From contig QHTE01000048.1 of the NCBI GenBank assembly GCA_003220685.1, forward strand, positions 95,029 through 159,028: a DNA stretch of 64,000 nt, in the 5' to 3' direction. This document shows, piece by piece, positions 41,113 through 56,693 of this stretch (positions are counted from its first letter, which is position 1; every line of letters starts with the position of its first letter). The notes beneath the pieces were generated by a model. It was given only the letters and a program-made list of their open reading frames with translations. It was not told the origin of the DNA and ran no database searches. The DNA comes from Candidatus Rokuibacteriota bacterium. GTDB taxonomy: Bacteria; Methylomirabilota; Methylomirabilia; Rokubacteriales; CSP1-6. The position numbers and the translations under genes were made by a program.

Positions 41113-42141
41113 ATGAGCACGCATCCGGCGCTGGACCTGTCCCACACGGCGATGAGCGAGGACGAGGCGCTGCGCTTCCTCGACGGCCATCGCATCCGCA
41201 TGGGGAGCCGCACGATGGACCCCAAGGCGCAGATCGTGGGCGAGTTCGTCAAGTCCATCCGCGTGCCGGGATACTATCCGCCGCTGCCCGAGCTCAGGCA
41301 GCAGCTCCGCGCGATGGTCAACTTGATGGACGAGCCCGCGCCCGAGCTGGCGCGGGTCGAGGACATCCGCATTCCCGGACCGGCCGGCGAGATTCCCGCT
41401 CGCTTCTATTCGTCGACCGCCGCGAAGACGCGGGAGCCGGCCGTCGCGTACTTCCACGGCGGCGGCTGGGTGCAGGGCGATCTCGAGACCCACAACGGGC
41501 TCTGCGCGCGGCTGGCCAAGCACGCTCGTGTGCTCGTCGTAGCCGTCGACTATCGGCTGGCGCCCGAGAACAAGTTCCCGGCGGCGGTCGAGGATTGCTT
41601 CGCCGCGTATCGCTGGCTGCGCGAGAAGGGCCGCGACCTCGGCGCCGACACCGCGCGCATCGCGGTGGCCGGCGATTCGGCCGGCGGCAACCTCTCCGCC
41701 GTCGTCTCGCAGCTCGCCGCGTCGGCGGGCATGCCGGTGCCGACGTGTCAGGCGCTCATCTATCCGGCCGTCGACGCCTCGCTCGAGACGGACTCGCACC
41801 GTGAGCTGGTCGACGGGCACGTGATCCCGCGCGAGCGCATCATCTGGTACATGCAGCAGTACCTGAGGAGCGACGCGGACCGGGCCGACTCGAGGTGCTC
41901 TCCGCTCCGCGCGGCGAGCCTCACGGGCCAGCCGCCGGCCATGATCGTCACCGCCGGCTTCGACCCACTCCGCGACGAGGGTCGGGCGTACGGAGAACGG
42001 CTGCGCGAGGCCGGCGTAGACGTCGTCTACCGCGAGTATCCCGGCCAGATCCACGCGTTCGTGTCGCTGACGAAGGCGATCCCGCAGGGCATGGCCTGCA
42101 CGCTCGAGATCGCTGACTTCCTCCGCCGGCGTCTGGGCTGA
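41113..42141 (+). CDS. alpha/beta hydrolase fold-3 esterase/lipase (HSL family)
   Basis: 342 aa from MSTHPAL with a GAGGAGGA RBS. 'YFHGGGW' oxyanion motif, 'GDSAGGN' nucleophile elbow, and 'DPLRDEG..' plus 'HAF' for the acid and His. Confidence 0.85.
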   Translation: MSTHPALDLSHTAMSEDEALRFLDGHRIRMGSRTMDPKAQIVGEFVKSIRVPGYYPPLPELRQQLRAMVNLMDEPAPELARVEDIRIPGPAGEIPARFYSSTAAKTREPAVAYFHGGGWVQGDLETHNGLCARLAKHARVLVVAVDYRLAPENKFPAAVEDCFAAYRWLREKGRDLGADTARIAVAGDSAGGNLSAVVSQLAASAGMPVPTCQALIYPAVDASLETDSHRELVDGHVIPRERIIWYMQQYLRSDADRADSRCSPLRAASLTGQPPAMIVTAGFDPLRDEGRAYGERLREAGVDVVYREYPGQIHAFVSLTKAIPQGMACTLEIADFLRRRLG

Positions 42142-42144
42142 GCG

Positions 42145-42822
42145 ATGACCTTCTCTCTGATCGGGCGGTGCGAGCGCAGCGGCATGTTCGGGGTCGCGAT
42201 CTCGACCAGCGAGATGGCGGTCGGCTCGCGCTGCATCCACGTGGCCCCCAATGTCGGCGCCATCATCACGCAGGCCAGCACCAATCCGCGTCTCGGTCAT
42301 CTCGGTCTGAATCTCTTGCGCGACGGCTATTCGGCGTCGCGCGTTCTCGACGAGATCGCCGCGAGCGACCAGTACGTCGAGCGCCGGCAGCTTGGCTGTC
42401 TCGACGTCACCGGCCTGGGCGTGGCGCGAACCGGCTCGGGGAACCGGCCGTGGGCGGGTCATCGCGTCGACCGCAACGTGGTCGTGGCCGCCAACGCCGT
42501 CGTCGGCGCCGAGGTCGCCGACTCGATGTTCGACGCGTTCAAGCGCGGCGCCGATCTTCCGCTGTGGGAGCGCCTCCTGCGATCGATCGAGGCCGGGAAG
42601 GCGGCCGGCGGCCAGCCCGACGGCGAGACCTCCAGCGGGCTCTACGTCGTCGACCGCGACATCTACCCCATGGTCGACCTGCGCGTGGATCTACACCCGT
42701 CGCCCGTCGCCGAGCTCCGCCGGCTGGCCGACGCGTACTTTCCGCTGGTGTCGTACTACAACCTGCGCCCGCGCGATCCCAACGTGCCGCCGGCCGCGGA
42801 ATGGCTCGCAGGCCACCGATAA
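42145..42822 (+). CDS. DUF1028 family (Ntn-hydrolase-like) protein
   Basis: 225 aa. The 'MTFSLIGRC...GMFGVAISTS' N-terminus and 'LLRSIEAGKAAGGQ' are typical of DUF1028 (from memory). Confidence 0.75.
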   Translation: MTFSLIGRCERSGMFGVAISTSEMAVGSRCIHVAPNVGAIITQASTNPRLGHLGLNLLRDGYSASRVLDEIAASDQYVERRQLGCLDVTGLGVARTGSGNRPWAGHRVDRNVVVAANAVVGAEVADSMFDAFKRGADLPLWERLLRSIEAGKAAGGQPDGETSSGLYVVDRDIYPMVDLRVDLHPSPVAELRRLADAYFPLVSYYNLRPRDPNVPPAAEWLAGHR

Positions 42823-42875
42823 GGGCCCAGCGGGTCCTTCTCGGCGGCCTGCAGGTGGTGTCTCTGGCGAGATGC

Positions 42876-43490
42876 TCACGCGAGCATGGTGAGGGTCTGG
42901 TGGAGCGTGCGGACGCGGGCGTACATCTTCATCGACTTGTCGAGACTGTAGGCGTGAGCCGCGGCGTCGCTGCCCCAGCAGCACTCGCGGACGACGACGG
43001 TGTCGAGGTCCATGCTGAAGGCCTCGCGCACGCTGGTCTCGACGCCGCGGTTGGTGGCGCCGCCGCCGATGACGAGCGCCGTCCGGCGCAGCAGCCAGAG
43101 CAGCTCGGCCGCGCCGGTGCCGTAGAAGGCGCTCGGCCGGCGCTTGAGGTAGACGTAGTCCTGGGCACGCGGCGCGATCTCGTCCGGGAAGCCGGCGTCC
43201 GGGGTACCCTCGACACAGTTGGTGAGCGACGGTACGCCCGTCTCGGCGCTGAGATCGGTCGGCAGCAGCACGACGTCGGCGCCGTCGGCCCGGCTCACCG
43301 GGGTGGTATAGATGACGGGCATCGCGCGCGCCCGGCACGCGGCGATCAGGGTGACCCAGGCGTCGAGCACCGGCCGCATCGCCGCGCGGCGTGCGGGGTC
43401 GGCCGGGGTGAGGGCGCGGCGGCAGGCGTCGTACACGATCAGGGCGGCTCGCGAGGTGTCGATGCGGTCGGTGCTGGCAGTCATACTCAT
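42876..43490 (-). CDS. isochorismatase-family cysteine hydrolase
   Basis: 204 aa. 'ALIVYDACR', 'KRRPSAFYGT.L..LL' and 'LVIGGGATNRGVETSVREA' show the isochorismatase fold pattern. Confidence 0.8.
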   Translation of the reverse strand: MSMTASTDRIDTSRAALIVYDACRRALTPADPARRAAMRPVLDAWVTLIAACRARAMPVIYTTPVSRADGADVVLLPTDLSAETGVPSLTNCVEGTPDAGFPDEIAPRAQDYVYLKRRPSAFYGTGAAELLWLLRRTALVIGGGATNRGVETSVREAFSMDLDTVVVRECCWGSDAAAHAYSLDKSMKMYARVRTLHQTLTMLA

Positions 43491-43527
43491 GCCCGGATTC
43501 TAATCCGGCGCGACGTGAGGTGATCCG

Positions 43528-44334
43528 ATGACAGACACGAAGCCCGGGCGCGCGCACCTCATCATGGGTGGCTTTCCGCCCGGATCACAAGCCGGCCACG
43601 ATCACGACTACGCGCGCCTGCGGCTCCTCGGCCTCCTGGCGGAGCGCGAGATTCCGGCGTCGGTCGCCAACGACTTCGCGGACGTCGAGAAGTGGCTGCC
43701 GGTGAGCCGCTTCTTGCTCACGTACGTGGCCGGCCCGTATCCAGACACCGCGCAGTGCCGCGCCATGAAGCAATGGCTCGAAGCCGGCGGCCGCTGGCTC
43801 GGCCTGCACGGCACCAGCGGCGGCCGCGCCGAGCGGGTGGAAGGCTCGCGGCAGCGCCGGACCGTGAAGACCGAGCACCACGCGCTTCTCGGGAGCTATT
43901 TCCTGACTCATCCGCCGATCTGCAAGATCCGCGTCGACGTGACCGGCGACACGAGCCTGACGCGCGGGCTCGGCGCCTCGTTCGTCGTCGAGGACGAGCC
44001 GTACTTCATCGAGCTCCAGGACCCCAAGTCGACGCGGGTCCTGCTGACCGCGGACTACGGCCCGGGCGCCACGTCGCCCACCATCGGCACGCTGTATCCC
44101 TCCGACACGTCGCTCCAGCCCGACGGCAGGACGCGCGTGCTCGGCTACACGCGCGCGGTCGGCGGCGGCGGCGTCACCTACGTGGCGCTCGGCCACTGCC
44201 ACAATTCCGCGATCAGAGCGTCGCGCGTCGTCGATCCGACCGACACGACGCCGCTGACGTTCCGCGGCTCGTGGGAGAGCGACGCGTTCGCGACCCTGCT
44301 GCGCAACGCCATCGCATGGGGGATGGGGGGCTAA
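43528..44334 (+). CDS. ThuA-like domain protein (class I glutamine amidotransferase-like fold)
   Basis: 268 aa. 'GGRWLGLHGTSG' and 'YVALGH' are ThuA-type motifs. Confidence 0.7.
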   Translation: MTDTKPGRAHLIMGGFPPGSQAGHDHDYARLRLLGLLAEREIPASVANDFADVEKWLPVSRFLLTYVAGPYPDTAQCRAMKQWLEAGGRWLGLHGTSGGRAERVEGSRQRRTVKTEHHALLGSYFLTHPPICKIRVDVTGDTSLTRGLGASFVVEDEPYFIELQDPKSTRVLLTADYGPGATSPTIGTLYPSDTSLQPDGRTRVLGYTRAVGGGGVTYVALGHCHNSAIRASRVVDPTDTTPLTFRGSWESDAFATLLRNAIAWGMGG

Positions 44335-44422
44335 CGCGCGTTTCCGCTGAAACGTCTCAGCGCGTCGACCTCTTGCACCCGCCGGCGGGCGGTGTGAGAA
44401 GCTGACAGAAAGGAGAGCGACG

Positions 44423-44671
44423 ATGACCGACGACGCGGTGAAGGCAGAGCTGGAGCGACTCAGGACCGAGAACGCCGCGCTGAAGGCCCAGTCCTCACGC
44501 GGCGTCTCGTTGAAGGTCAGCGAGAAGGGCGGCGTGTCCGTCTACGGGCTCGGCCGGTTTCCCGTCACCCTCTACAAGGAGCAGTGGATCAAGCTGCTCG
44601 ACCTGGCCGACGACATCCGCGCCTTCATCAAGGCGCACGACGCCGAGCTGAAGGCCAAGGAGCCTCGCTGA
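44423..44671 (+). CDS. small hypothetical protein (N-terminal coiled coil)
   Basis: 82 aa with an AAAGGAG RBS about 8 nt upstream. 'KAELERLRTENAALKA' is heptad-like, followed by 'VSEKGGVSVYGLGRFPVTLYKEQW'. I recognise no family. Confidence 0.5.
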   Translation: MTDDAVKAELERLRTENAALKAQSSRGVSLKVSEKGGVSVYGLGRFPVTLYKEQWIKLLDLADDIRAFIKAHDAELKAKEPR

Positions 44672-44867
44672 GGCGGCGCCGCGCCGCTCGCTCGGGCGGC
44701 CCGACCACGGTCGCACCCGTCCGTCAACGATAGCAGGTGAGCCTCGTCCCGGGCGAGATTTGCCGAGGCGAGGCCCGAGCCCGCGCGCATGCAGCACAAG
44801 CACGTCCGTCATTTCATCGATCTCGTCTACGCGGCCCTCTAGAGTATCCTGACACGGAGCGGCCTCC

Positions 44868-46682
44868 GTGAAGCTACGCACGCACCTGATCTTGCTGATC
44901 CTGGCCACGGTCGTGCCCGCCGTTCTGTTCGCGGTCGGGCTGATCGTGTACCACACGCGCCTCGAGCGGTCGTCGCTCGAGCGCGGCATGCGCGACACCG
45001 CGCGCGCCCTGGCGCTGGCGCTCGACCGGGACATCAACGACATCAAGACGAGTGTCGAGACGGCGAGCGCGTCGCGATATCTCGATGGCCCCGTCGATCT
45101 CGCGCATTTCTACGAAGAGGCGGCCACGGTGTCGAAGGGCTTCGGGGGCTGGGCGGTCCTGTCCGATCCCTCGGGCCGGCAGGTCCTGAACACCAGCCGG
45201 CCACTGGGATCGGCACTGCCGATCCCCACGATGGCGGGCCTCGAGATGATGAGGAGCGTCGCCGACGGCCGAAAGACCGTCGTGTCCAACGTGCTGGTCG
45301 GCGCCGTCGGCCGCCAGCCGGCGGTGATCGTCTCGGCGCCGGTCATCCGTGGCGGTCAGGTCCGCTACGTCCTCGACTTCCCGTTCCCGCCGACCCAGTT
45401 CACCAAGCTGCTCCAGGAGGCGTCGCTGTCGCGGGGCTGGATCGCGCTGATCACCGATCGCGACGGCGGTGCGGTCGCGCGGGTTCCGGACCCCGCGAGC
45501 TTCGTGGGACGCAAGGAAAACCAGGCATGGACAGCGCAGACCACGAGCGCCGACGAGGGATTCATCAAGGGCGAGCTGATCAGGGGCCCGTCCGTGTACG
45601 CGGCCTACAGCCGCTCGAGGGAGACCGGGTGGGTCGTCGGGGTGGCCGCGCCCGTCAAGCTGATCGATGCGGGGATCCGACGGTCGATGCTCGCGTTGTC
45701 GAGCGGCGGGCTGCTCCTGCTCGCCATCGGGTGCGGTCTCGCGTATGTGCTCGGCAAGCGTATCGCGGCGCCGATCGTCGCGCTCGCCGACTCGCTGAAG
45801 GCCGAGCCCGAGGCACCGCTGCCGTCCGCGCAGTCGCGCGTGTCGGAGGTGGAGGATCTGCGCCGGGCGCTCGAGGACGCGCGGGCCGCGGCGCGCCAGG
45901 CCGAGCAGGCGCATGCCGCGCGGCGCGAGGCCGAGGCCGCCAACCGGGCGAAAGACGACTTCCTCGCCGTGCTGTCCCACGAGCTCCGCACCCCGCTGAA
46001 CGAGACGCTCGACTGGGTCCGGATGCTCCGGTCCGGCCGCCTGGAGGGCGGCGCCGCCGCGCACGCGCTGGAAGTGATCGAGCGCAACGTCACTCGGCAA
46101 AGCCGGCTGATCAGCGATCTGCTCGACGCCAGCCGAATCGTCTTCGGTCGTCTCGAGCTCAGCCAGCAGGCCGTGGACCTCCCGGCGCTCGTGGCGAGCG
46201 TGGTGGAGTCGTTCCGGCCGTCCGCGGAGATCAGAGGGATCAGCTTGAAGTCCGAGCTCGACCCCGCCACCGGCCCGGTGAACGGCGATCCCGATCGATT
46301 GCGTCAGGTGGTCGAGAACATCCTCGACAACGCGGTCAAGTTCACGCCGACGGATGGCGCCGTGACCGTAGAGCTCGCGCGCGACGTCGACGCGCGCCTC
46401 ACCGTGTGCGACACCGGACGTGGCATCGACGCCGAGCTCCTGCCGCACATCTTCGAGCGCCTCGAGCAGTCCGACGGCACGAGGACCCCCGGGCACGACG
46501 GGCTCTGCCTCGGGCTCGCGATCGTCCGACACCTCGTCGAGCTCCATGGCGGGCGGGTGAGCGCCGAAAGCAACGGCGTCGGGCAGGGGGCGACGTTCAC
46601 CGTCGTCTTGCCGATCGTCGCCGCGGCGGTGGAGGACGGCGAGCCTTTGGACGGTGAGCCTCCGGCCGGTGAGCGGGTGTGA
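44868..46682 (+). CDS. sensor histidine kinase (periplasmic Cache-like sensor, HisKA, HATPase_c); no adjacent response regulator
   Basis: 604 aa from GTG. Two TM segments flank a ~270-aa sensor. H-box 'FLAVLSHELRTPLN', N-box 'ILDNAVKFT', G-boxes 'DTGRGI' and 'GLCLGLAI'. Confidence 0.85.
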   Translation: MKLRTHLILLILATVVPAVLFAVGLIVYHTRLERSSLERGMRDTARALALALDRDINDIKTSVETASASRYLDGPVDLAHFYEEAATVSKGFGGWAVLSDPSGRQVLNTSRPLGSALPIPTMAGLEMMRSVADGRKTVVSNVLVGAVGRQPAVIVSAPVIRGGQVRYVLDFPFPPTQFTKLLQEASLSRGWIALITDRDGGAVARVPDPASFVGRKENQAWTAQTTSADEGFIKGELIRGPSVYAAYSRSRETGWVVGVAAPVKLIDAGIRRSMLALSSGGLLLLAIGCGLAYVLGKRIAAPIVALADSLKAEPEAPLPSAQSRVSEVEDLRRALEDARAAARQAEQAHAARREAEAANRAKDDFLAVLSHELRTPLNETLDWVRMLRSGRLEGGAAAHALEVIERNVTRQSRLISDLLDASRIVFGRLELSQQAVDLPALVASVVESFRPSAEIRGISLKSELDPATGPVNGDPDRLRQVVENILDNAVKFTPTDGAVTVELARDVDARLTVCDTGRGIDAELLPHIFERLEQSDGTRTPGHDGLCLGLAIVRHLVELHGGRVSAESNGVGQGATFTVVLPIVAAAVEDGEPLDGEPPAGERV

Positions 46683-46744
46683 CCTTCACGGCAGCCCGGC
46701 GCCGGCGGTAGACTTCTGGCGCTGAGCAAACAGGAGGCCCGACG

Positions 46745-47308
46745 ATGAACGCGACCCCGACGTTCGGACGCTACGCCGAGATTCCCGTCGACCAGATGAC
46801 CGCCGAGCAGAAGGACGGCTACCGCTTCCTGGTCGACGGCCCGCGCGGCCGCCTGCCGGGCCCGTACAAGGTGTGGGTCCACAACCCGAAGCTGCTTCGC
46901 GCCGCCGCCCCGCTCGGCGAGCATTTCACGCCCGGCAAGTCGACGTTGACCGAGCGCGAGCGGGAGATCGCGGTGATCGTGATCACCAGCAAGTGGAATT
47001 CGGCCTATCCCGCCGCCGCCCACGAGAAGCGCGGCAAGGAGGTCGGCCTGCCCGCGCCGGCGGTGGAGGCGATGATGGCGGGCCTTCCAGCGTCGTTCGC
47101 GGATCTGCGCGAGCAGGTCGTCTACGAGCTGGCGACGACGCTCGCCAACGGGCGGTTGCTCTCTCAGGGGCTCTACGACCGCGCGGTCAAGGCGCTCGGC
47201 CACGAGAGCATCACCGACGTGGTCGTGCTGATGGGCTACTACACGGCCGTCTCGCTGACGATGAACGTCTACGCCGTACCGGCTGGAGCTCCCGGCCTGG
47301 CCCGCTGA
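46745..47308 (+). CDS. carboxymuconolactone decarboxylase (CMD/AhpD-like) family protein
   Basis: 187 aa. 'LTEREREIAVIVITSKWNSAYPAAAHE' is typical of the CMD family. Confidence 0.8.
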   Translation: MNATPTFGRYAEIPVDQMTAEQKDGYRFLVDGPRGRLPGPYKVWVHNPKLLRAAAPLGEHFTPGKSTLTEREREIAVIVITSKWNSAYPAAAHEKRGKEVGLPAPAVEAMMAGLPASFADLREQVVYELATTLANGRLLSQGLYDRAVKALGHESITDVVVLMGYYTAVSLTMNVYAVPAGAPGLAR

Positions 47309-47326
47309 GGAGCGCGGAGCGAATCC

Positions 47327-47701
47327 ATGATCGAATACCGGCTCGACGCCGCGCGCTCGATCGTGTACGTGAGGCCCAAGTCAGCGCTCGAGCGCGACGA
47401 CTTCGTGAAGCTGGCGCGAGCAGTCGATCCGCACATCGAAGCGACGGGCGGGCTCGCCGGGCTCATCATCGAGATCTCCGCGTTTCCCGGCTGGGACAGC
47501 CTCGGCGCGATGGCGGCCCACTTCCGCTTCGTACGAGACCATCACGAGCGCATCCGCAAGGTCGCCGTCGTGACCGACTCCCCGCTGGGTGCCGTCGCGG
47601 AACGTCTGGCATCCCACTTCGTGTCGGCGGAGATCAGGCATTTTTCGGCTGGACAGGTCGAGGCCGCCAAGCAGTGGATCCTGGCTTCAGCGCGACCCTA
47701 G
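47327..47701 (+). CDS. STAS/SpoIIAA-like (DUF3478-type) protein
   Basis: 124 aa. 'LIIEISAFPGWDSLGAMAAHFRFVRDHHERIRKVAVVTDS' matches the SpoIIAA-like family as I remember it. Confidence 0.7.
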   Translation: MIEYRLDAARSIVYVRPKSALERDDFVKLARAVDPHIEATGGLAGLIIEISAFPGWDSLGAMAAHFRFVRDHHERIRKVAVVTDSPLGAVAERLASHFVSAEIRHFSAGQVEAAKQWILASARP

Positions 47702-49399
47702 GTCTCGCTCGGCGTCCATCAGAAGGTCGTCGAACGACGACGGCACCTCGACAGTGCGCCCGACGACGCCGGGGCTGTAGCCCTGGAGCCAGTAGCTGTT
47801 GGTCGGGTGCCCGCCGCCCGCGACGACGACGATGAAGTTGTCGGGGCTGGCGGTGATCGGCCAGGGATCGAGCGCGATGCTTTCACGCACGACCTTGCTC
47901 GCGTCGATCTCGAGCCACGCCGGGCAGCCGGCGCGGCGTAGCTGCTCGGTCGGGATGCGCGAGTGCTCCCACAGGAACTCGCGGATCGCCGCCTTCGTCC
48001 AGCCGAGGCCGGCCATCGTGTTCGCCACGACGCCGGGGAGCATCAGGATGCCCGGCGTGCCGTGCTCGTAGCCCGCGAGGCCGGGCATGTTGGGCACGCG
48101 CATGAAGTCGGCCATGCGGTACATGCCCTGCAGCGCGTCTTCTTCCGGGGTTTCCTTCTTCGCGCCGCGCCGGCGGATGTTCGTGGCGCCGTTGGCGAAC
48201 GCGAGCGAGATCGAATGCTGACTCCGCGCGAAGGCGTGGCGCTCGGTCCCGTGCGGCGCCCAGCCCGGCGGAAGATTCGCTTCGTCTTCCGCGAAGACGA
48301 CGTTCGTGTACCGCACGCCGCCGTAGTTGGCCATGGTGCCGATGCCGGGCAGGGCGCCGCCGACGTTCTGCTGCAGGAGCCGCAGCGCGCGGCCGATGCT
48401 GGCGCCCGCGGGCCGCTGCGGGTCCGGGCCGAGGCAGCCGAAGCCGGCGTTCAGCCGGATCTGGGCGCCGATGGGGCCGTTGACGATCACCACCGGGAAG
48501 GCGCTGCCCGACGCGGCCTGCAGCTGCGCGCTCCCTGACGCCGGATCGAGGAACGCGTCGACCGCGGCCACGAGCACCGGCAGATACTCGGGCCGCCCGC
48601 CCGACATCGCCAACGCGATCGCGCAGGTCTCGATCGTGGTCACGCCGCCGCGGGGCGGGAAGATGCCGATCCGTCGTGAGCGCGGCTGCGTCGCGCCGCG
48701 AAGGATCCAGTCCACTCGCTCGCGCGTCGGGGGCCAGAGCGGAAGCCCGTCGCCCCAGCGATTCGCGAGCATCAGGTTGTTCGCTCGCGCGAAGGCCTCG
48801 TCCATGCTCGCGCCCCGAACCTTGATCGGCGGCGCCTCGGCCGCGCCGGCGCCGCCGAGGGTCGAGCGCCAGCGCGTGAGCCCGTCGTAGAACTCGCGCT
48901 TGCGCGCCTCGACCGGGGAGATATCGCTCCCGGGCAGGAACATCTCGATGGGGAAGGTGACCATCGCCGCGTCGGGCGCCAGGCCGAGCCCGGCCACCGC
49001 GTTCGTCATGACCCCGACGAAATCCGCGCGGGTCAGGGTGACGGTTGGAATTCCCAGCGCTTCGAGCCTAGCGGCCGCCCGGCCGCATGCAGTGGCGCAG
49101 GACCCTCAGGCCGCGTTGCCGATGATGACGGCGTCGACCCCACTCTGCTTGACCTGCGCGGCCGTCTCCTCCGAGCCGATCACCGCGTTGCCCTGCGGGA
49201 AGGCGTCGAGCGGCAGCACCTCGATGCCCGCGAAGTCGGCCTCGAGCAGCTGTTTCAGGAGCGGCAGCATGCGGTACGCCTGCCACTGATCGTTGCTGAC
49301 GAAGCCGATGCGCTTGCCCTCGAGGGCGGCGACGCGCGGGGCAAATGGCTGCTTCACCTCGATCGCGCCTGACGGATCGTGGAACTCGAGCGTGACCAT
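47687..49399 (-). CDS. selenoprotein: GrdB C-terminal-like 'UGSC' Sec domain (UGA-Sec at 49106-49108) fused to a ~380-aa domain of unknown function
   Basis: ORFs 49106..49399 and 47687..49009 are in one frame with no stop in the 96 nt between them. Read-through gives 'GVDAVIIGNAA-U-GSCATACGRAAARLEALGIPTV', parallel to this window's GrdB 'GVDAVILTST-U-GTSTRCGAAITRELERAGLPTV'. GGGGGA RBS precedes ATG 49399. Confidence 0.65.
49071..49086 (-). promoter_or_regulatory. candidate SECIS-like stem-loop downstream of the UGSC UGA
   Basis: Sense strand GCGGCC-GGGC-GGCCGC begins 20 nt 3' of the UGA at 49106-49108. Its position fits a bacterial SECIS, but the structure was not modelled. Confidence 0.3.
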
Positions 49400-49417
49400 G
49401 CGCTTGTCCCCCTTGGG

Positions 49418-50566
49418 CTACCGCTTGATCTTCAGGAGCTTCGCCGCCGTCTCCCCCAGCATCGCCCGCCGATCGGCATCGCTGAAGCCCGGCGCTTTCA
49501 GGATGTGGTCGATCGACTTGTCCTGCCACGGGATCGGATGGTCGGTGCCGACGACGAGCTGGCTCACGCCGACTTCGGCGGCCAGATGACGCAGCGCCTC
49601 GGAGGTGAAAACCAGGGTGTCGTAGTACATCGTCTTCAGATACTCGGTCGGCTTCTTCTTCAGCTTGATGCCCGTGTCCATGTCGGGCGCGACGCGCAGG
49701 CTGTTGTCCGAGCGCGCGGCGTACGACGGCAGGTAGCCGCCGCCGTGGGCCGAGCAGATCTTGAGGCCGGGGAACCGATCGAGCGTGCCCTCGAAGATCA
49801 GGTGCGAGAGCGCGATCGTGGTGTCCAGCGGGTTGCCGATCGTGTTCGCCAGCCAGCCGTTGCCCTTGAGCCGCGTGGCCAGGTCCGGCGTGCTCTGCGG
49901 ATGGATGAAGATCAGGACGCCGAGCTGCTCGGCCTTGGCCCAGAACGGATGGAACTTCGGGTCGGAGAACTCATCGCCGGCGACGCTCGCGCCGACGGCG
50001 GCGCCGCGCAGGCCGAGCTTCTTCACGCCCTCCTCGAGCTGCTGCACCGCGAGGTCCGGGAACTGCAGGGCGACGGAGGCGAACGCGACGAAGCGATCCG
50101 GATACTTTCCGCAGAACTCGGCGAGCCGCTCGTTCTGGATCTTGACCACCTGGGTCGCGAGGTCGCGCTCGGCCCGATACCACGCCGGGTTGATGCTGAG
50201 CGCTTCCATGTCGATGCCCTGGGCGTCCATCTCGCGGATGCGCCGGGGGCCGACCTCGTTGATCCCGGGCCCACGGTGGTCTTGCACCTTCAGCCCCAGC
50301 AGCGCGTACGCCTCGGGGATCACGCAATGGGCGTGCACGTCGATCGTCTTCACGCGGCGTCCGCCGACCACGACTTCGCGGCGCCGACCGGTCATCGCCG
50401 TCGCCGGGCTCGACTGGCCCGATTTCGGGCGCGCTTTGCCCCGCGTGGCGGCGGGCGCCTTGGCCCGAGCTCGGGCGCGCGCCGCACCGAGCAGCTCGCA
50501 CTCGATGAAGGCGATGTCAGCCATGACGCCGGCGGTACTGCTGTCGAACGCTGTCCGCGTGCTCAT
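49418..50566 (-). CDS. amidohydrolase-2 family protein (ACMSD-like metal-dependent hydrolase/decarboxylase)
   Basis: 'KTIDVHAHCV', 'FIHP', 'ICSAHGGG' and 'LVVGTDHP' match the PF04909-type barrel. The N-terminal ~55 aa are low-complexity, so the true start may be the internal ATG near 50395. Confidence 0.8.
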   Translation of the reverse strand: MSTRTAFDSSTAGVMADIAFIECELLGAARARARAKAPAATRGKARPKSGQSSPATAMTGRRREVVVGGRRVKTIDVHAHCVIPEAYALLGLKVQDHRGPGINEVGPRRIREMDAQGIDMEALSINPAWYRAERDLATQVVKIQNERLAEFCGKYPDRFVAFASVALQFPDLAVQQLEEGVKKLGLRGAAVGASVAGDEFSDPKFHPFWAKAEQLGVLIFIHPQSTPDLATRLKGNGWLANTIGNPLDTTIALSHLIFEGTLDRFPGLKICSAHGGGYLPSYAARSDNSLRVAPDMDTGIKLKKKPTEYLKTMYYDTLVFTSEALRHLAAEVGVSQLVVGTDHPIPWQDKSIDHILKAPGFSDADRRAMLGETAAKLLKIKR

Positions 50567-50622
50567 CGCTATCCCCCCAGGAGCAGTTTCGGCTGCAAGC
50601 GCGGCCTATCATAGTGCATCGC

Positions 50623-51921
50623 TCAGCCCTCGCGTCGTCCCGAGTGCGGCGGCATGGCGAGCTCCGCCGGCTTGCGCCGGCAGACGTCGACGGCGGTCAC
50701 CGCCAGCACGCGCGTGACCCTTTCCATCTCGCTCACGAGCACGCACGCGTCGTCCTCGTCGGCGTTGCCGCGAATCGTCGCGGGGCCGTAGAGCAGACAC
50801 GGGATGCCGGCCTTCCAGAGGTGGCACGTGTCGTCGGCGCTGTACGAATGCGGCAGCACGGCGCCGATGGCCTTCGGCTCCTGGCCCGTCACGGCGCGAT
50901 AGCTCCGCGCCACCGCCTGCACGATTGGCGCGTCGGTCGGCATGTCGAACGGATCCATGACGAGGCGCCGGCGCCCCTTGAAGCTGGCCGGCGGCGGAAT
51001 CTCGATCTCGTAGCGGAGATCGGGATCGAGCGCCGCGACCGGATCGAGCGCGCGGCGGATGTCGGCGACGATGCCGTCGACGGTTTGCCCCGGCACGAAG
51101 TGAACGTCGACCAGGATCGTGCACAGATCGGGCACGTACGGCGGCTCGACGAGCACGTAGTCCCGGCCGCGTCCGCCGAGGACGCTGCCGACGTTGAGCC
51201 GCGGGAACGCGGGGAGGTCGGGCCGCGGCGTGTGGCGAAACTCGACGTGCTCGAGCGCGCGGACGATGGCCGTCATCTTCTGCACCGCGTTCACCGTGCC
51301 CTCGAGGCGTCCGATGTGTCCGGTTACTCCGTAGGCATGGATCGCCATGTGCGCGATGCCCGAGTGCACCGTGACGAGGTTGTCGGCGCCGAACGGCTCG
51401 GCGACCACCGCGGCGTCGGTGCGCAGGCCGCTCTGCATCAGGTAGTGCGTGCCCTCGCCGCCTTGCGTCTCGCCCGCGACGCACGCGACGACGAGATCGC
51501 CGGCGCGCCGGACGCCGGAGCGCCGAACGGCCTCGGCGGCCATGATGATGCTGGCCAGGCCGCCCTTCATGTTCTGCACGCCGTGGCCGTACAGGCGGTC
51601 GCCCTCGAGGCTCGGCGTCCACGGGTCTCGCCTCCACCGGCGGGTGAGGGCGTTGATATCCGTGTGGCCGTTGAGCATGAGGCTCGCCCCGCCGCCGGTA
51701 CCCCGCAAGGTGGCGATCGTCTGCAAGCGCCCGGGCTCGATCTCTTGCAGGTCGACGTCGTAGCCGCGGCGGCGGAAGAAATCCTCCAGGAACCGGGCAA
51801 CGGGCGTCTCTTCGGTCTTGAAGCTCGGGATGCGAATGAGATCGCTGGCGAGATCGATCAGCTCGCGCCGACCGACGCGCGCCAGCACGGCGTGCATCGG
51901 CGCATCCATCGCCTGACTCAC
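50623..51921 (-). CDS. M20 family metallopeptidase/deacylase (ArgE/DapE-like)
   Basis: 432 aa. 'LMLNGHTDI', 'GHGVQNMKGG' and 'VAGETQGGEG' are M20 motifs. Confidence 0.85.
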   Translation of the reverse strand: MSQAMDAPMHAVLARVGRRELIDLASDLIRIPSFKTEETPVARFLEDFFRRRGYDVDLQEIEPGRLQTIATLRGTGGGASLMLNGHTDINALTRRWRRDPWTPSLEGDRLYGHGVQNMKGGLASIIMAAEAVRRSGVRRAGDLVVACVAGETQGGEGTHYLMQSGLRTDAAVVAEPFGADNLVTVHSGIAHMAIHAYGVTGHIGRLEGTVNAVQKMTAIVRALEHVEFRHTPRPDLPAFPRLNVGSVLGGRGRDYVLVEPPYVPDLCTILVDVHFVPGQTVDGIVADIRRALDPVAALDPDLRYEIEIPPPASFKGRRRLVMDPFDMPTDAPIVQAVARSYRAVTGQEPKAIGAVLPHSYSADDTCHLWKAGIPCLLYGPATIRGNADEDDACVLVSEMERVTRVLAVTAVDVCRRKPAELAMPPHSGRREG

Positions 51922-51934
51922 CGGCCAGCGCCGA

Positions 51935-53185
51935 TCAAACGAAGGTGAGCGGCTCGACGTGGGCTTCGCCGCGCGCGAAGCGGCCGATGTCGAGCGGGCC
52001 GGCGTCCATCGTCACGGCGTGGCCGTGGGCGAGCATCTCGGCCATCAGCTGCCCCGCAATCGGGCCGTGCATGAAGCCGTGGCCGCTGAAGCCCGCGATG
52101 ACGTGCAGGCCCGTGACGCCGGGCACGGCGCTGACGATGCCGGTCTGGTCCGGCGTCATCTCGTAGAGGCCGGCCCACGCGCGCATCAGCTCGGCGTCGG
52201 CGAGGGCCGGCGCGCGGTGAATCGCGCGCTCGATCAGCGCGGGCTCGAGGCTCCGGTCGATCTCGGTGCTGAAGCCGTCGGGCTCGTCGCGCCGTCCGTG
52301 GCCGAGCAGGAGCCCGGGCCCCTCGCGGCGCAACGAGAAGTTCGTGTGCGGGTCGATGATGAACGGCGTGGCGGCCGGGATGCGTGAGGCCGGGAACGGT
52401 GCGGTCATGAACTTGTGGCGCCGGTGGGGGCTCACGGGAATGTCGACGCCGGCGAGCCGGCCGACCACGCCCGACCAGGCGCCGGTCGCGATGACGGTGG
52501 CGCGCGCCTCGAAGGTCCCGGCCGCGGTGGTCACGCCGCGCACGCTGTCGCCGTCCCGCAAGAAGCCGTGCACCTCGTGCTGCTGCTTGATCGTCACGCC
52601 GAGATCCCGCGCGCGCGCCGCGATCGCGGTCGCGCAGAGATACGGGTCGGCGTAGCCGTCGCGCGGCGTATAGGTGGCCCCGAGCAGATCGTCGGTGTTG
52701 AGATAGGGGCAAAGCGCGCGCGTCGCCCCGGCATCGAGCAGCTCGACGCGCACGCCGAGGCTCCGCTGGAGCCCGACGCTGCGTCGCGCGACCGCCAGCT
52801 CCGGCTCGCTCCCGATCAGGATCAGGTAGCCGTGCTGACGGAAGTTGGGATCGACGCCGAACTCGTCCTTGAAGCGCTCGTAGGTGACGATGCTGTGCGT
52901 CGTCAGCTCGATGCCCAGCCGGTTCGCGTACTGGTGGCGGATGCCGCCGCTCGCGAGCGCCGTCGAGCCGGAGCAGACGGTGTCGCGCTCGAGCACGGTC
53001 ACCGGGCCCACGCCCAGGCGGGCCAGATGGTACGCGGTGCTCACGCCCATGATGCCGGCGCCGACGATCACGACTTCCGCGGTGTGCGCCACGCCGCCAC
53101 CATACGGCAAGCGCGAGCCGGGCTCAACCCGATCGGCTTGAACCGGCGCGGCAAGACGGCGATCATGGCCCGGCGAGGAGGGCAC
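51935..53185 (-). CDS. FAD-dependent oxidoreductase (DAO family; sarcosine oxidase beta / D-amino-acid dehydrogenase-like)
   Basis: Rossmann motif 'VVIVGAGIMGVSTAYHLA' and C-terminal 'GFSGHGFMHGP'. The start is uncertain: ATG 53185 lies 5 nt from the divergent amidase, and GTG 53092 is the alternative. Confidence 0.8.
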   Translation of the reverse strand: MPSSPGHDRRLAAPVQADRVEPGSRLPYGGGVAHTAEVVIVGAGIMGVSTAYHLARLGVGPVTVLERDTVCSGSTALASGGIRHQYANRLGIELTTHSIVTYERFKDEFGVDPNFRQHGYLILIGSEPELAVARRSVGLQRSLGVRVELLDAGATRALCPYLNTDDLLGATYTPRDGYADPYLCATAIAARARDLGVTIKQQHEVHGFLRDGDSVRGVTTAAGTFEARATVIATGAWSGVVGRLAGVDIPVSPHRRHKFMTAPFPASRIPAATPFIIDPHTNFSLRREGPGLLLGHGRRDEPDGFSTEIDRSLEPALIERAIHRAPALADAELMRAWAGLYEMTPDQTGIVSAVPGVTGLHVIAGFSGHGFMHGPIAGQLMAEMLAHGHAVTMDAGPLDIGRFARGEAHVEPLTFV

Positions 53186-53190
53186 CCGAG

Positions 53191-54588
53191 ATGGCGACGA
53201 TCGATCCTGTCTGGGCCACGGTATCGGAGCTGTCCCGCGCGTTCGAGGCGCGTACGCTTTCCCCGGTCGATGCCGTCGGGGCGCTGCTCGAGCGGATCCG
53301 CCGGCGCGATCCGGCGCTGCACGCGTTCATCGCAGTCTACGACGCCGACGCGCGGCTCGCGGCCGAGGCCGCCGACAAGGCCATTCGATCGGGGCATCGC
53401 ATCGGACCGCTTCACGGCGTCCCGATCGCGCTGAAGGACCTCGTCGACCTCGAGGGTCGCGTCACCACCGGCGGGTCGAAGGTGTGGGCCGAGCGCGTGT
53501 CGCCGACGACCGCCACGTTGGCGCAGCGGCTCATGGCCGCCGGGATGATCGTGCTCGGCAAGACGCACACGGTCGAGTTCGCCATGGGGAGCTGGGGGAC
53601 CAACACGCACATGGGCACACCGCGCAACCCGTGGGACCTCGCGGTGCATCGCACGCCGGGCGGCTCGTCCAGCGGCTCGGGGGTCGCGGTCTCCGCCGGT
53701 CTGGCGCCCGTCGCGATCGGCACCGATACGGGCGGCTCCGTCAGGATTCCCGCGGCGTGGTGCGGCATCGTCGGCCTGAAGGTGACGGCCGGCCGGATCA
53801 GCACGTACGGCGTCCTGCCGCTCAGCTCGACGCTCGATACGCCCGGCCCGCTGGCGCGCTCGGTCGAGGACGCGGCGCTGATCTACCGGGCGCTCAGCGG
53901 GCCCGACCCGCGAGATCCGCAGACGCTCGCGTGGACTCCGGTCGATCCGCTACCCGCGTTGCGCCGCGGCGCCGCGGGATTGCGTCTCGCCGTCTTGCCC
54001 GACGCCGAGCGCACGGGTGTCGAGAAGGAAGTGCTGGCCGCGTACGAGGCCGCGGTCGGCGCGCTCGCCGGGCTCGGAGCCCAGATCGTCCGCGTCGAGT
54101 TTCCCCGCCGCCTGAGCGACTACGCCAAGGCGACGGGCACGATCATCGGTGCCGAGGGCTATCGCTTCGTCGGTCACCTGGTCGACGACCCGGCGCTGCC
54201 GACGGACCCGCACGTGCGACCGCGCATCCAGCTCGGTAAAGCCATCTCGGCGCGCGACTACTTGCTGGCGCTGGCGCAGCGCGAAGAGGACAGGCGCGAG
54301 TTCGCCGCGGCGCTCGGCGGCGTCGACGCGATCCTGACGCCGACCGCGCAGACCGCGGCGATTCCCATCGATCGCGCCGACCAGTCGGGCACGGCAGCCC
54401 ACTTCACGCGGCCGGGCAACTATCTCGGCCTCTGCGGTCTGGCGATCCCCAGCGGCTTTTCGACGGACGGCCTGCCGCTCTCGCTCCAGATTCTCTGCCA
54501 CGCCGGAGAGGAAGCGACGGCGCTGCGCATCGGCTGGGCCTACGAGCAGGCCACGAGCTGGAAGGCGCGCCGGCCGCCGGAGCCGTGA
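53191..54588 (+). CDS. amidase (amidase-signature family, GatA-like)
   Basis: 465 aa. 'GVPIALKD' and 'GGSSSGSGVAVSAGLAPVAIGTDTGGSVRIPA' give the Ser-cisSer-Lys signature. Confidence 0.9.
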   Translation: MATIDPVWATVSELSRAFEARTLSPVDAVGALLERIRRRDPALHAFIAVYDADARLAAEAADKAIRSGHRIGPLHGVPIALKDLVDLEGRVTTGGSKVWAERVSPTTATLAQRLMAAGMIVLGKTHTVEFAMGSWGTNTHMGTPRNPWDLAVHRTPGGSSSGSGVAVSAGLAPVAIGTDTGGSVRIPAAWCGIVGLKVTAGRISTYGVLPLSSTLDTPGPLARSVEDAALIYRALSGPDPRDPQTLAWTPVDPLPALRRGAAGLRLAVLPDAERTGVEKEVLAAYEAAVGALAGLGAQIVRVEFPRRLSDYAKATGTIIGAEGYRFVGHLVDDPALPTDPHVRPRIQLGKAISARDYLLALAQREEDRREFAAALGGVDAILTPTAQTAAIPIDRADQSGTAAHFTRPGNYLGLCGLAIPSGFSTDGLPLSLQILCHAGEEATALRIGWAYEQATSWKARRPPEP

Positions 54589-54618
54589 GCCAGGCGGCTG
54601 AGAAAGGTCCAGCTTCCT

Positions 54619-55137
54619 TTATCGGCCGCCTGGGCGCGAGGTCACGTGCCCGCAGCGACTACACGTACGATTCGCCTCCGAGCCGTAGAACTCCTCGTAG
54701 GCGCGCGACACCGGGTCCTCGCGATAGTCGGCGACCTGCTTGACGCTCTGGTGCAGCTGTGCGCCGCACTGGTCGCAGTACCAGGTGAAGCGATCGCTCT
54801 CGCCGGCCCGCCGCTTGCGCTCGAGCACGAGCACGAACGCGTCGGGCGAGAAGCGCGGCGAGTGCGGCGTCCCCGCGGGGCAATAGACGATCTGGCCCTC
54901 TTTGATCACCGCGATCTTCTCGTCGCCCTCCGGCGTCCGGTAGTGGAGGTCCATGTCGCCCTTGATCATGTACATGACCTCGTCGCTCGGATCGCTGTGG
55001 AACTCGCTGCGAAACTCGCGGCCCCGCGCGACGAACGCGATGCTGTCGGGCGCCTGCCACAGGACCGTGTTGGGGCGGCCCGAGGCGCGGATCGTGCTCA
55101 TGACCTGACCCAGGTCGACCGCTTTCATCTCATCCAT
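54619..55137 (-). CDS. 3-hydroxyanthranilate 3,4-dioxygenase-like cupin with a C-terminal CxxC...CxxC site
   Basis: 172 aa. AAGGAG RBS inside the end of the upstream gene. 'EFHSDPSDEVMYMIKGDMDL', 'PAGTPHSP', 'WYCDQCG' and 'CSRCGH' match bacterial HAAO as I remember it. Confidence 0.8.
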   Translation of the reverse strand: MDEMKAVDLGQVMSTIRASGRPNTVLWQAPDSIAFVARGREFRSEFHSDPSDEVMYMIKGDMDLHYRTPEGDEKIAVIKEGQIVYCPAGTPHSPRFSPDAFVLVLERKRRAGESDRFTWYCDQCGAQLHQSVKQVADYREDPVSRAYEEFYGSEANRTCSRCGHVTSRPGGR

Positions 55138-55139
55138 GA

Positions 55140-56693
55140 CTACTCCTTGGTCACGTTCTCGACCCTCAGGTCGAAACCACTCGGGTGGAGCCGGAAGCCC
55201 TTCACGCTCGCGCGCGTGGCAACCACCTGGACCTCGTGGTCGACGAAGACCATGGGCGCGTCCTCGACGATCAGCCGCTGCGCCCGGCGATAGAGCTCGA
55301 CGCGCCGGGCGCGCTCGCCGGTCTGACGGGCCTGCACAAGGAGCTGGTCGACCTCGGGATTGTTGTAGTTCGACCGGTTCGGCAGCGGCGTGTTCTTCGA
55401 GTAGAAGAGCGGGTACATCGAGAGATCGGGGTCCTCCGACTTCAGGAACCAGGAGAGCACGAACAGCGCCGGCGCCTCGGCGCGCACCTTGCCGAGGTAC
55501 GAGCCCCACTCGAACGTCTTCAGCTGCGCCTTCACGCCCACGGCCGCCAGGTTCGCCTGGATCACCGTCGCCATCTCGACCGGCGCCTGCATCCCGGAGC
55601 CGGACTCCGGCACCCACAGGTCCGTCTCGAGGCCGTTGGGATAGCCGGCCTCGGCCAGGAGCTTTCGCGCGGCGGCGGCATCGTAGGGGTACTTGCGCAC
55701 GTCCGGCTCGAACGCCCACGTGCCCGGGAGCAGCGGGCCGATCGCGGGGATCCCCGTGCCCTTGAGGATGTCGCGGGTGATCGCCTCGCGGTTCACGGCG
55801 TGGCTGAAGGCCTGGCGCACGCGGCGGTCGGTGAACGGCTTCTTGTCGACGTTGAACCCCACGTACCACACGGTGAGCCCCGTCGCCTTGTGCACCGTGA
55901 CGCCCGAGTGTTTCTCGAGCCGCGCGACGAAGTCGGGCGGGATCGGCAGGATCAGATCGACGCCGCCCGTCAGCAGCTCGGCCACGCGCGCGTTGGCCTC
56001 GGCGAGGCCGCGGTAGACCAGGGTCTGCGGCTTGCCCTTCGCGCCCCAGTAGTCGTCGTTGCGGCGCAGCACGAGGCGGCTGCCGCGCTCCCAGGACTCG
56101 ATCTTGTAGCGGCCGCTGCCGACGGGCCTGGCGTCGAAGTCGGCCGGCGACTTCGCGAAGGCCGTCGGGCTCACGATCGCGCAGTTCGGCAGCGCGAGCA
56201 GCGCCAGCAGGGAGCCCGTCGGATACTTCAGCTGCAGCTGCACCGTCTGAGGATCGAGCACCTCGACCGCCTTCACGCTCGCGAGGTAGCCGGTGACGAA
56301 CGTCCACTTGCCGCTCTTGGCGTGCGGGTGCGAGGGATCGATGACGCGGTCGAAGGTGAACTTGACGGCCGAGGCGTCGAGCGGCGTCCCGTCGTGGAAG
56401 CGGACGCCGCGGCGCAGCTTGAACGTCCACGCCAGCCCATCGGCCGAGGTGGTCCATGACTCCGCGAGGCCGGGGACGATGTCAGTGCTGTCGGCGGCGG
56501 TGGCAACGAGCGTCTCGAAGATCTCGGCGGTCACGCGCAGGGTGTGGATACCGAGCGCCTGACCAGGATCGAGCCCCGGCGGCTCGGCCTCCATGCCGAC
56601 CACGAGCACGTCGCGCGGCGTCTGCGCCGGGATCGGGGTCGCGAGCAGCACGCTGGCCAGCATGGCTGCGGCGAACGGAGCGAATCGCGGCAT
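55140..56693 (-). CDS. ABC transporter substrate-binding protein, family 5 (orphan; no adjacent permease or ATPase)
   Basis: Start at MPRFAPFAAAMLASVLL (signal peptide). 'WTFKLRRGVRFHDGTPLDASAVKFTFDR' is the family-5 signature. Confidence 0.9.
   Translation of the reverse strand: MPRFAPFAAAMLASVLLATPIPAQTPRDVLVVGMEAEPPGLDPGQALGIHTLRVTAEIFETLVATAADSTDIVPGLAESWTTSADGLAWTFKLRRGVRFHDGTPLDASAVKFTFDRVIDPSHPHAKSGKWTFVTGYLASVKAVEVLDPQTVQLQLKYPTGSLLALLALPNCAIVSPTAFAKSPADFDARPVGSGRYKIESWERGSRLVLRRNDDYWGAKGKPQTLVYRGLAEANARVAELLTGGVDLILPIPPDFVARLEKHSGVTVHKATGLTVWYVGFNVDKKPFTDRRVRQAFSHAVNREAITRDILKGTGIPAIGPLLPGTWAFEPDVRKYPYDAAAARKLLAEAGYPNGLETDLWVPESGSGMQAPVEMATVIQANLAAVGVKAQLKTFEWGSYLGKVRAEAPALFVLSWFLKSEDPDLSMYPLFYSKNTPLPNRSNYNNPEVDQLLVQARQTGERARRVELYRRAQRLIVEDAPMVFVDHEVQVVATRASVKGFRLHPSGFDLRVENVTKE

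Follow-up and report, generated by a model that had tools for sequence, protein, structure and literature searches.

A predicted two-module UGSC selenoprotein encoded across an in-frame UGA codon in a Candidatus Rokuibacteriota genome

Background

The name 'UGSC-containing protein' dates from 2007, when it was given to a selenoprotein of unassigned function (PMC1976440). In 2008, UGSC was shown to rank with the most abundant families of selenoproteins in the ocean: the Global Ocean Sampling (GOS) metagenome data contained 255 UGSC sequences carrying selenocysteine (Sec) and 21 carrying Cys (PMC2398784). A 'UGSC/Unknown_1' fusion selenoprotein from the GOS data is depicted in Fig. S1A of the 2008 report (PMC2398784). 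Reviews of 2022 and 2026 still give no function for UGSC (PMC13188914 among the later literature), and the family has thus gone almost twenty years without an assigned function despite its abundance in aquatic metagenomes (PMC2398784; PMC13188914). In this report, we analyze a gene predicted to encode a UGSC selenoprotein fused to a second, unannotated domain. The gene occupies positions 47687..49399 of the minus strand in a 64,000-nucleotide stretch of contig QHTE01000048.1 from Candidatus Rokuibacteriota bacterium (hereafter, the window).

Other systems to which this gene can be compared include the glycine and D-proline reductases. In these enzymes, the Sec of GrdB or PrdB attacks a substrate carbon, and a neighboring Cys forms a selenenylsulfide that is reduced later. 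GrdB and PrdB act together with a pyruvoyl partner (GrdE or PrdA).

The idea of a UGSC fusion is not new, because the UGSC/Unknown_1 protein was published in 2008. What was already known (2007-2008) is the UGSC family and its fusion to an undescribed domain, and the window gene is a new complete member. New in this report are the great size of the partner-domain family, which lacks any annotation, the evidence from gene pairs and fusions, including a triple fusion with a ferredoxin:thioredoxin reductase (FTR) domain, a probable link to GrdB, a well-supported description of the Sec insertion sequence (SECIS), and an annotation error common to the close homologs.

Results and discussion

Gene and reading frame

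Translated from 49399 to 47687 on the minus strand, the gene is one frame of 570 codons, in which the sole internal stop is the TGA at 49108..49106 (codon 98). The frame closes with an ordinary TGA stop at 47689..47687. Because the gene's own terminator is an ordinary TGA, the internal TGA must be read in a context-dependent manner. The open reading frames (ORFs) listed for the minus strand of the window divide the gene into an upstream ORF of 97 amino acids (49106..49399), which starts with ATG and terminates in the internal TGA, and a downstream ORF of 440 amino acids (47687..49009) in the identical frame. The 96-nucleotide spacer between them (49010..49105) is free of stops. The initial annotation had given these coordinates, the shared frame and the open spacer, and all of them hold. 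Around the UGA, the read-through context is VIIGNAA, the stop, and then GSCATACGRAAARLEALGIPTVTL (also given as VIIGNAA, the stop, GSCATACGRAAARLEALGIPTV). A purine-rich, Shine-Dalgarno-like AAGGGGGA can be read from the sequence at 49407..49414 (minus strand), 7 nucleotides before the ATG at 49399..49397, and this ATG lies 18 nucleotides past the stop of the upstream Amidohydro_2 gene (49418).

Comparative evidence for recoding

Homologs were sought with the read-through sequence in a collection of 5.8 billion proteins, and two classes were recovered. Proteins of about 440 amino acids (82-92% identity, 77-80% query coverage) begin in the alignment at or near an internal Met, Met131, whose codon (49007..49009, minus strand) is taken by gene callers as the start of a 440-residue 'hypothetical protein'. 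Proteins of about 575 amino acids (63-65% identity, 100% coverage) carry the Pfam UGSC domain and are single proteins aligned end to end, with Cys (TGT or TGC) exactly at the UGA column (GNAA-C-GSCSTALGRAAA; NAA-C-GSC).

A tblastn scan of one genome per species identified 80 loci with matches spanning residues 1-570, from Rokubacteria/Methylomirabilota (77-93% identity) and Betaproteobacteria/Burkholderiales (69-76%). The column could be located in 77 of these loci, giving 78 sequences with the window; three further loci were missed by the search pattern and left out. The codon corresponding to the UGA (49106..49108, minus strand) is TGA in all 78 sequences, and wherever the contig permits, the frame stays open for 466-478 codons after it. 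Not one stop occurs among the 78 sequences in the 32 codons from UGA to ATG, and the entropy by codon position in this interval (0.25/0.13/0.99) is the same as in the coding sequence on both sides. The in-frame UGA is thus aligned with Cys in homologs and conserved on both flanks. The stop-free interval and its coding-type entropy exclude gene decay, an error of sequencing, and a pair of independent genes.

A lone in-frame stop in high-G+C sequence of metagenome type could in principle mark a pseudogene or a fault in sequencing or assembly. However, the same TGA recurs in at least two phyla, in 77 assemblies that are independent of one another, and both halves of the gene are intact and conserved, so that the comparative data already refute this explanation and its probability is negligible.

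Two separate genes, one for a 97-residue peptide ending at the UGA and one for a 440-residue protein started at ATG 49009, is how databases annotate the close homologs. Gene callers report proteins of about 440 amino acids for these (for example, P0001, with 387 member sequences), and the ATG is kept in 75 of the 78 Sec-form genes. This arrangement is nonetheless very improbable: protein-level selection acts on the 32-codon interval from UGA to ATG, the Cys homologs run on continuously with Val at the supposed start column, the 97-residue product would end in the middle of the UGSC domain just before its defining motif, and a conserved SECIS element follows the UGA.

We also considered an output that depends on selenium, in which the full-length protein is made when selenium is available and, without it, termination at the UGA is followed by re-initiation at the ATG 32 codons on to give a protein consisting of the C-terminal domain only. 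The distribution of Met131, present in 75 of 78 Sec forms and replaced by Val in the Cys forms, is consistent with such a scheme, as is the existence of genes encoding the C-terminal domain only (L083, L087 and L088, described below). However, no clear Shine-Dalgarno sequence precedes ATG 49009, three Sec forms have Val or Thr in place of the Met, the conservation of Met may merely reflect common ancestry of the Sec clade, and the 440-residue product would keep a broken half of the UGSC domain. We regard this dual output as improbable.

A single read-through polypeptide with UGA as Sec, in which ATG 49009 encodes an internal Met, had been proposed in the initial annotation. The proposal agrees with the Cys homologs of about 575 residues, which are one polypeptide, with the conservation of the column as Cys or UGA, and with conservation that crosses the ATG. 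Recoding is also favored by a second gene with an in-frame UGA in the window, a member of the selenoprotein B family described below. As judged from these comparisons, the window gene almost certainly encodes a single polypeptide in which UGA is recoded as Sec.

Six loci (L005, L012, L016, L030, L038 and L055) carry genes 70-87% identical to the Rokubacteria/Betaproteobacteria gene of the window on contigs labeled Dormiibacterota, Acidoferrum, Nitrosotalea (an archaeon), Streptomyces, Bordetella parapertussis and Chitinophaga pinensis. These discordant labels are probably binning or labeling errors in public metagenome-assembled genomes.

SECIS-type hairpin

A hairpin at 49070..49088 (minus strand) spans 17-37 nucleotides past the UGA. 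Its core stem, GCGGC(C)/(G)GCCGC, pairs 49086..49081 with 49076..49071, beneath which are a bulged U49087 and a closing pair, A49088-U49070, and the apical loop is GGGC (49080..49077). The GC core, GCGGCC-GGGC-GGCCGC at 49086..49071, starts 19 nucleotides past the UGA. All Sec-form genes share the consensus A-[U]-GCGGC(C)-loop-(G)GCCGC-U, in which an unpaired, invariant U separates the closing pair from the core. Rokubacteria have GGGC or GGUC in the apical loop, and Betaproteobacteria have CGUGC(A/U). No Rfam model matches the recoding region.

Several lines of evidence indicate selection on this structure at the RNA level. First, among 76 unique sequences, none of the five core pairs varies except for a G-U wobble in 7, and the three third-codon positions within the stem have zero entropy, compared with 1.2-1.8 bits at flanking third positions. 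Second, the closing pair is formed by the third positions of two Ala codons, which covary (AU in 33, GC in 21, UG in 7, and unpaired in 15; n = 76). In a 27-sequence alignment, the covariation score is 0.147 versus 0.074 in shuffles, and none of 500 shuffles reached the observed value. Third, when the 3' arm was slid as a control for register, pairing fell from 87% to 22-70%. Fourth, where all Sec forms use GGC and GCC, the codons of three independent Cys-form genes are GGT or GGG and GCG-GCG-GCG, so the stem cannot form in them. Given invariant synonymous sites, covariation and absence from Cys-form genes, this stem-loop shortly 3' of the UGA behaves as a bacterial SECIS. The GC hairpin placed at 49071-49086 in the initial annotation is therefore present, and is of SECIS type on these three grounds.

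The hairpin is coded by the codons for C105-G-R-A-A-A. The Cys105 codon, TGC (49085..49087), supplies the bulged U and the first two bases of the stem, and is invariant in 78 of 78 Sec forms, whereas the Cys forms have Leu or Thr at this position. Cys105 may be imposed by RNA structure rather than by protein function; alternatively, it could be a third thiol specific to Sec forms (U-x-x-C-x-x-x-C).

UGSC module and its relation to GrdB

The N-terminal part of the protein (approximately residues 1-180; 48860..49399, minus strand) is a UGSC domain, predicted to be a Rossmann/flavodoxin-like alpha/beta module, that bears the Sec. Pfam PF24696 (UGSC) matches residues 7-151 at profile positions 3-145 of 172, with 77.3 bits (E = 2e-21), above its threshold of 25 bits. 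The NCBIfam model NF041046, 'UGSC family (seleno)protein', scores 49.1 bits, below its equivalog cut-off of 125, so the window protein belongs to a divergent, fused branch and is not an equivalog of the small UGSC proteins. The 'UGSC family' label in the initial annotation is thus correct at the level of Pfam and does not extend to the NCBIfam equivalog. The motif C/U-G-[SAT]-C is kept in the 78 Sec forms, the Cys forms, and stand-alone UGSC proteins; in the window protein it reads NAA-U-GSC, and the redox motif U98-G-S-C101 (UxxC; 49097..49108, minus strand) stands where a predicted beta-strand passes into a helix. Only 3 matches came from a word-indexed search that used a stand-alone UGSC protein as the query.

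We used a natural Cys homolog, P0014 (65% identical), and a 58-sequence alignment for structure prediction with AlphaFold. The model is confident and has two domains, a predicted local distance difference test score (pLDDT) of 91.5 and a predicted template modeling score of 0.92, with pLDDT above 88 throughout the UGSC domain. The Sec position falls between a strand (90-96) and a helix (99-113) in an alternating beta/alpha domain. A Foldseek search of the PDB with the full-length model gave weak matches that were solely Rossmann/flavodoxin-like and ran through the N-terminal domain, among them the DHQS N-terminal domain, a B12-binding domain, and flavodoxin-like reductases; no thioredoxin fold was among the 50 matches listed for this predicted model. 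The predicted structure suggests that the UGSC fold is Rossmann/flavodoxin-like rather than thioredoxin-like. This is contrary to the 2008 report, in which UGSC was described as having a 'likely Trx-like fold' (PMC2398784).

A profile comparison with hhalign, in which a diverse UGSC profile was aligned with residues 328-427 of a GrdB-family protein also encoded in the window, gave a probability of 82% (E = 1e-5) over 97 columns; with a shallower UGSC profile, the probability was 57%. The alignment extends beyond the internal Met131. The GrdB/PrdB family profiles themselves (TIGR01917/01918 and TIGR04483) score 11.8-13.9 bits at residues 70-124, far below their cut-offs of 300-800. The UGSC module is therefore probably a remote homolog of the Sec-bearing C-terminal end of GrdB, to judge from profile similarity. 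Of the 'GrdB-like Sec module' described in the initial annotation, the remote homology past the ATG is retained, whereas membership in the GrdB family is not.

C-terminal domain

Residues 185-570 (about 385 amino acids; 47690..48847, minus strand) belong to an unannotated family. An exhaustive HMMER search over 1.84 billion cluster representatives, clustered at 50% identity, recovered 3,292 relatives at E<=1e-3, of which 1,908 also reached E<=1e-10. No Pfam or NCBIfam model matched the C-terminal domain of the window protein, and scans of ten diverse members, together with a permissive scan of 59 alignment members, detected only UGSC and, once, FeThRed_B. Sequence-profile searches of the PDB with the C-terminal domain found no meaningful relative. 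These results agree with the initial annotation, which could not assign the partner of about 380 residues to any family.

The C-terminal domain alone was modeled with a pLDDT of 93.8. We rejected a kinship with class I fumarate hydratase or the 'Toblerone-fold' amidohydrolases, for which the best Foldseek match in the PDB was nonsignificant (E = 7e-3, probability 0.41, TM score 0.24). In about 100 family members, D217, T225, N307, R337, E371, E373, W380 and K469 are 85-99% conserved, and no Cys is conserved (C259 occurs in 2% and C322 in 37%). Because Cys is not conserved and several D, E, R, K and N residues are nearly invariant, the alignment suggests that these residues form an active site or bind a ligand, and that the domain is not a target of disulfide exchange.

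The C-terminal tail differs among clades. Betaproteobacterial Sec forms (L023-L080) and Cys forms (L081 and L082) end in DLGC(G/A)xxxCx(I/V), which contains a CxxxxC pair, whereas the Rokubacterial clade, including the window protein (47690..47720), ends in DLGPR or DLGSR and lacks this tail. The pair is possibly a second redox or metal site that tracks clade rather than the presence of Sec or Cys. A role for it in compensating for lost Sec was rejected, because the Betaproteobacterial Sec forms carry the tail too.

Fusion and adjacency of the two modules

To relate the two modules, we ran a locally built UGSC hidden Markov model on the 150 best of the 3,292 C-terminal-domain representatives. 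Six are intact UGSC/C-terminal-domain proteins, all of them Cys forms; 51 start with the remnant of UGSC that follows the Sec, and these are Sec fusions shortened by gene callers; and the other 93 have no UGSC match, many of them being fragments of under 300 amino acids. In the same way, thousands of 'hypothetical protein' entries of about 440-470 amino acids correspond to the 3' portion of a selenoprotein gene that was split at its UGA.

Among the apparently stand-alone C-terminal-domain genes that we inspected, the modules also occur in other arrangements. L083 has a separate UGSC selenoprotein gene (D-U-GSC), with a C-terminal-domain gene 9 nucleotides later, plus a second, fused Sec copy, and L086 has two Sec fusions. 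In the Streptomyces locus L088, a 375-residue C-terminal-domain gene (E = 2e-97) lies directly before a gene named by NCBI as 'UGSC family (seleno)protein', in the opposite order. In L084 (5440..7482), a Sec-containing triple fusion joins UGSC, the C-terminal domain and an FTR catalytic domain (FeThRed_B, PF02943). The third domain of L084 also weakly matches the NCBIfam 'FtrB family double-selenoprotein', and the gene is surrounded by genes for UbiD, an Old Yellow Enzyme, a fumarate-reductase-like flavoprotein, and a CoA-transferase. Since UGSC and the C-terminal domain recur as fusions or adjacent genes, they appear to act as one unit, and we consider it highly probable that they work together. 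By fusion and adjacency, UGSC is tied to a very large, enzyme-like family that has neither a Pfam or NCBIfam model nor a solved structure.

Proposed mechanism and alternatives

The ribosome almost certainly reads UGA codon 98 as Sec, directed by the downstream SECIS-type hairpin. A possible mechanism for the protein is as follows. The C-terminal domain would bind a small-molecule substrate, probably derived from an amino acid, peptide or amide, as judged from neighboring genes, and the U98 selenolate would attack or reduce it. C101 would then resolve the adduct to a selenenylsulfide, and a thiol or a ferredoxin-linked reductant would recycle the U98/C101 pair. We consider a single two-module selenoprotein with such a reductase mechanism to be the best overall explanation, with a probability of roughly 0.65. 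The mechanism is deduced from the UxxC motif, the strong preference for Sec over Cys, the relation to GrdB, the lack of conserved Cys in the C-terminal domain, and the FTR fusion. For the chemistry as such, selenol/thiol-dependent reduction is a tentative assignment drawn from motif and homology. Taken together, the fusions and adjacency, the probable kinship with GrdB, and the FTR domain lead to a testable hypothesis of a selenol/thiol reductase with a dedicated substrate-binding domain.

Several points weigh against this explanation. The literature holds no biochemical characterization of any UGSC protein (PMC13188914). The homology to GrdB has a probability of only 82% and covers about 100 residues. 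No gene or motif for a pyruvoyl partner (GrdE or PrdA) was found at the window locus, and none of GrdA, GrdC, GrdD and GrdE/PrdA is encoded beside the window gene or at the related loci inspected. A 717-residue tandem double C-terminal domain at L087 (4001..6154) has no UGSC within 4 kb upstream. When the neighbors of the window gene were compared by tblastn with 82 loci, their arrangement was kept only in the closest Rokubacteria, and because gene context is not conserved beyond close relatives, any functional link or substrate deduced from it is weak. Neither selA, selB, selC nor selD is among the annotated ORFs of the 64-kb window, which also contains no tRNA genes. Finally, the folding energy of the hairpin is not unusual relative to dinucleotide shuffles (z = +0.8 for 48 nucleotides and -1.05 for 27). 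With stability no better than that of shuffles in a window of 70% G+C, the case for the SECIS is comparative, based on conservation and covariation, and not thermodynamic.

L087 has an SBP_bac_5 gene directly upstream of the tandem gene, and is the sole exception found to the pairing of UGSC with the C-terminal domain.

The principal rival also supposes one selenoprotein and assigns UGSC a role in electron transfer, redox sensing, or binding of metal or selenium (with UxxC as a soft-metal pair), through which it would regulate or supply a C-terminal domain performing a nonredox reaction such as hydrolysis or isomerization. Consistent with this alternative, the literature groups UGSC with selenoproteins resembling thiol oxidoreductases (PMC2398784), the FTR catalytic domain found in the triple fusion normally has a thioredoxin disulfide as its substrate, and a second pair, CxxxxC, is present in the tails of the Betaproteobacterial and Cys forms. 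Moreover, the invariant residues of the C-terminal domain are of acid/base and not redox character, and its weak, nonsignificant fold matches are to hydro-lyases and ring-opening amidohydrolases. However, the C-terminal domain has no conserved Cys to serve as a disulfide target, the predicted fold of UGSC is Rossmann/flavodoxin-like and not that of thioredoxin, and the nearest relative of UGSC in sequence is the catalytic Sec region of GrdB. Also, Sec outnumbers Cys by 51 to 6 among the representatives and by 255 to 21 in the GOS data, which is typical of catalytic sites. On balance, a noncatalytic UGSC seems unlikely.

Returning to the reductase mechanism, a broader proposal is that UGSC and the C-terminal domain constitute a new class of Sec-dependent substrate reductase, encoded as a single chain or by two genes. 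It would be derived from the Sec module of the glycine/proline reductases, have no pyruvoyl partner, occur widely among aerobic bacteria of soils, fresh waters and the sea, and act on an imported compound derived from an amino acid, peptide or N-heterocycle. We put this forward as a speculation that is doubtful at present. If true, it would explain what is done by a selenoprotein family that ranks with the most abundant in the environment.

Neighborhood of the gene

The selenoprotein gene is the last of a co-directional run. Upstream of it, a probable operon at 49418..53185 (minus strand), recognized by Pfam assignments and short intergenic gaps, encodes an Amidohydro_2 protein (49418..50566), an M20 peptidase (50623..51921), and a DAO-type FAD oxidoreductase (51935..53185). 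Also upstream are a divergent amidase gene and a gene for an SBP_bac_5 binding protein. At other loci, the neighbors vary and are catabolic or transport genes, including SBP_bac_5 (at four unrelated loci), TctC, TauD, acyl-CoA dehydrogenases, amidohydrolases, M20, D-serine dehydratase-like proteins, and enzymes of the xanthine-dehydrogenase type. Those met repeatedly are amidohydrolases, M20 peptidases, DAO-type oxidases, and SBP_bac_5 or TctC binding proteins. Unbiased clustering of the flanking ORFs returned mostly TctC receptors, acyl-CoA dehydrogenases, and shadow ORFs. The initial annotation had called both the fusion partner and the operon uncharacterized. This stands insofar as the partner has no domain model, whereas the fusion was already in print in 2008 and the operon is a feature of very close relatives only.

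Convergent to the selenoprotein gene is an ORF of 187 amino acids (46745..47308, plus strand) with no Pfam match. It is conserved beside the selenoprotein gene at about 10 Rokubacteria loci (83-95% identity) and, weakly, at a few Betaproteobacterial loci (29-33%).

Positions 1..57000 of the window are dense in genes for catabolism and uptake (for example, 22751..24265, 2336..3943, 17331..18926, 55140..56732, 7998..10256 and 38519..40831). Among the products are three SBP_bac_5 binding proteins with ABC components, two further M20 peptidases, a phosphotriesterase-family protein, a ring-opening amidohydrolase of the AtzD/TrzD type (cyanuric acid/barbiturate type), two molybdoenzymes of the xanthine-dehydrogenase family, an amidase, and a luciferase-like monooxygenase. 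This content suggests a region for the breakdown of amides and N-heterocycles.

The GrdB-family protein aligned above is encoded by a second gene with an in-frame UGA (62376..63695, minus strand; UGA at 62640..62642), of about 439 amino acids, with the context ILTST-U-GTSTRCG. It belongs to the selenoprotein B family of the glycine/betaine/sarcosine/D-proline reductases (TIGR01918, 516 bits) and falls below the equivalog cut-offs for GrdB, GrdF and GrdH. A 7-bp hairpin starts about 11 nucleotides past its UGA. The stop of this gene overlaps (ATGA) the start of a gene for a DsbA-like, thioredoxin-fold protein (61672..62379), past which are an AraC regulator (60200..61315) and a DUF5940 protein (58731..60308). 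None of GrdA, GrdE, GrdC and GrdD was seen near the second gene, which is unusual for selenoprotein B.

Comparison with known systems

The SECIS of Escherichia coli fdhF has a bulged U beneath a short stem and a loop of the GGUC type. The hairpin of the window family resembles it in lying inside the coding sequence just 3' of the UGA, and in having a bulged U, a short G+C stem, and a G-rich loop, which reads GGUC in certain relatives and includes GU in the Betaproteobacteria. It differs in that the stem above the bulge has 5-6 base pairs rather than 4, the loop is about 6 nucleotides further from the UGA, and the loop of the window gene itself, GGGC, lacks the U.

With selenoprotein B of the GrdB type (GrdB/GrdF/GrdH/PrdB, TIGR01918), the window protein shares about 100 residues of homology around the Sec, in the order strand, Sec, helix and then a 'GxPTV' strand, and both have a resolving Cys nearby. 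The window protein differs in lacking the approximately 320 N-terminal residues of GrdB, in scoring below all GrdB-family cut-offs, and in having the motif UxxC where GrdB has UxxxxxC. Also, the hosts of UGSC fusions are not Stickland fermenters.

The small UGSC proteins (PF24696/NF041046) have the same domain and the same U-G-S-C motif. They share as well the far greater frequency of Sec than of Cys and the misannotation caused by the UGA. However, they are about 150-190 amino acids long, whereas the window protein adds a C-terminal domain of about 385.

The closest described system is the UGSC/Unknown_1 fusion from the GOS data, as it is depicted in the 2008 figure. Unknown_1 is probably the C-terminal domain of the window protein, and the architecture is very likely the same. 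The two differ in that the GOS fusion comes from marine read fragments, whereas the window contains a complete gene in a soil-type genome of the Rokubacteria/Methylomirabilota.

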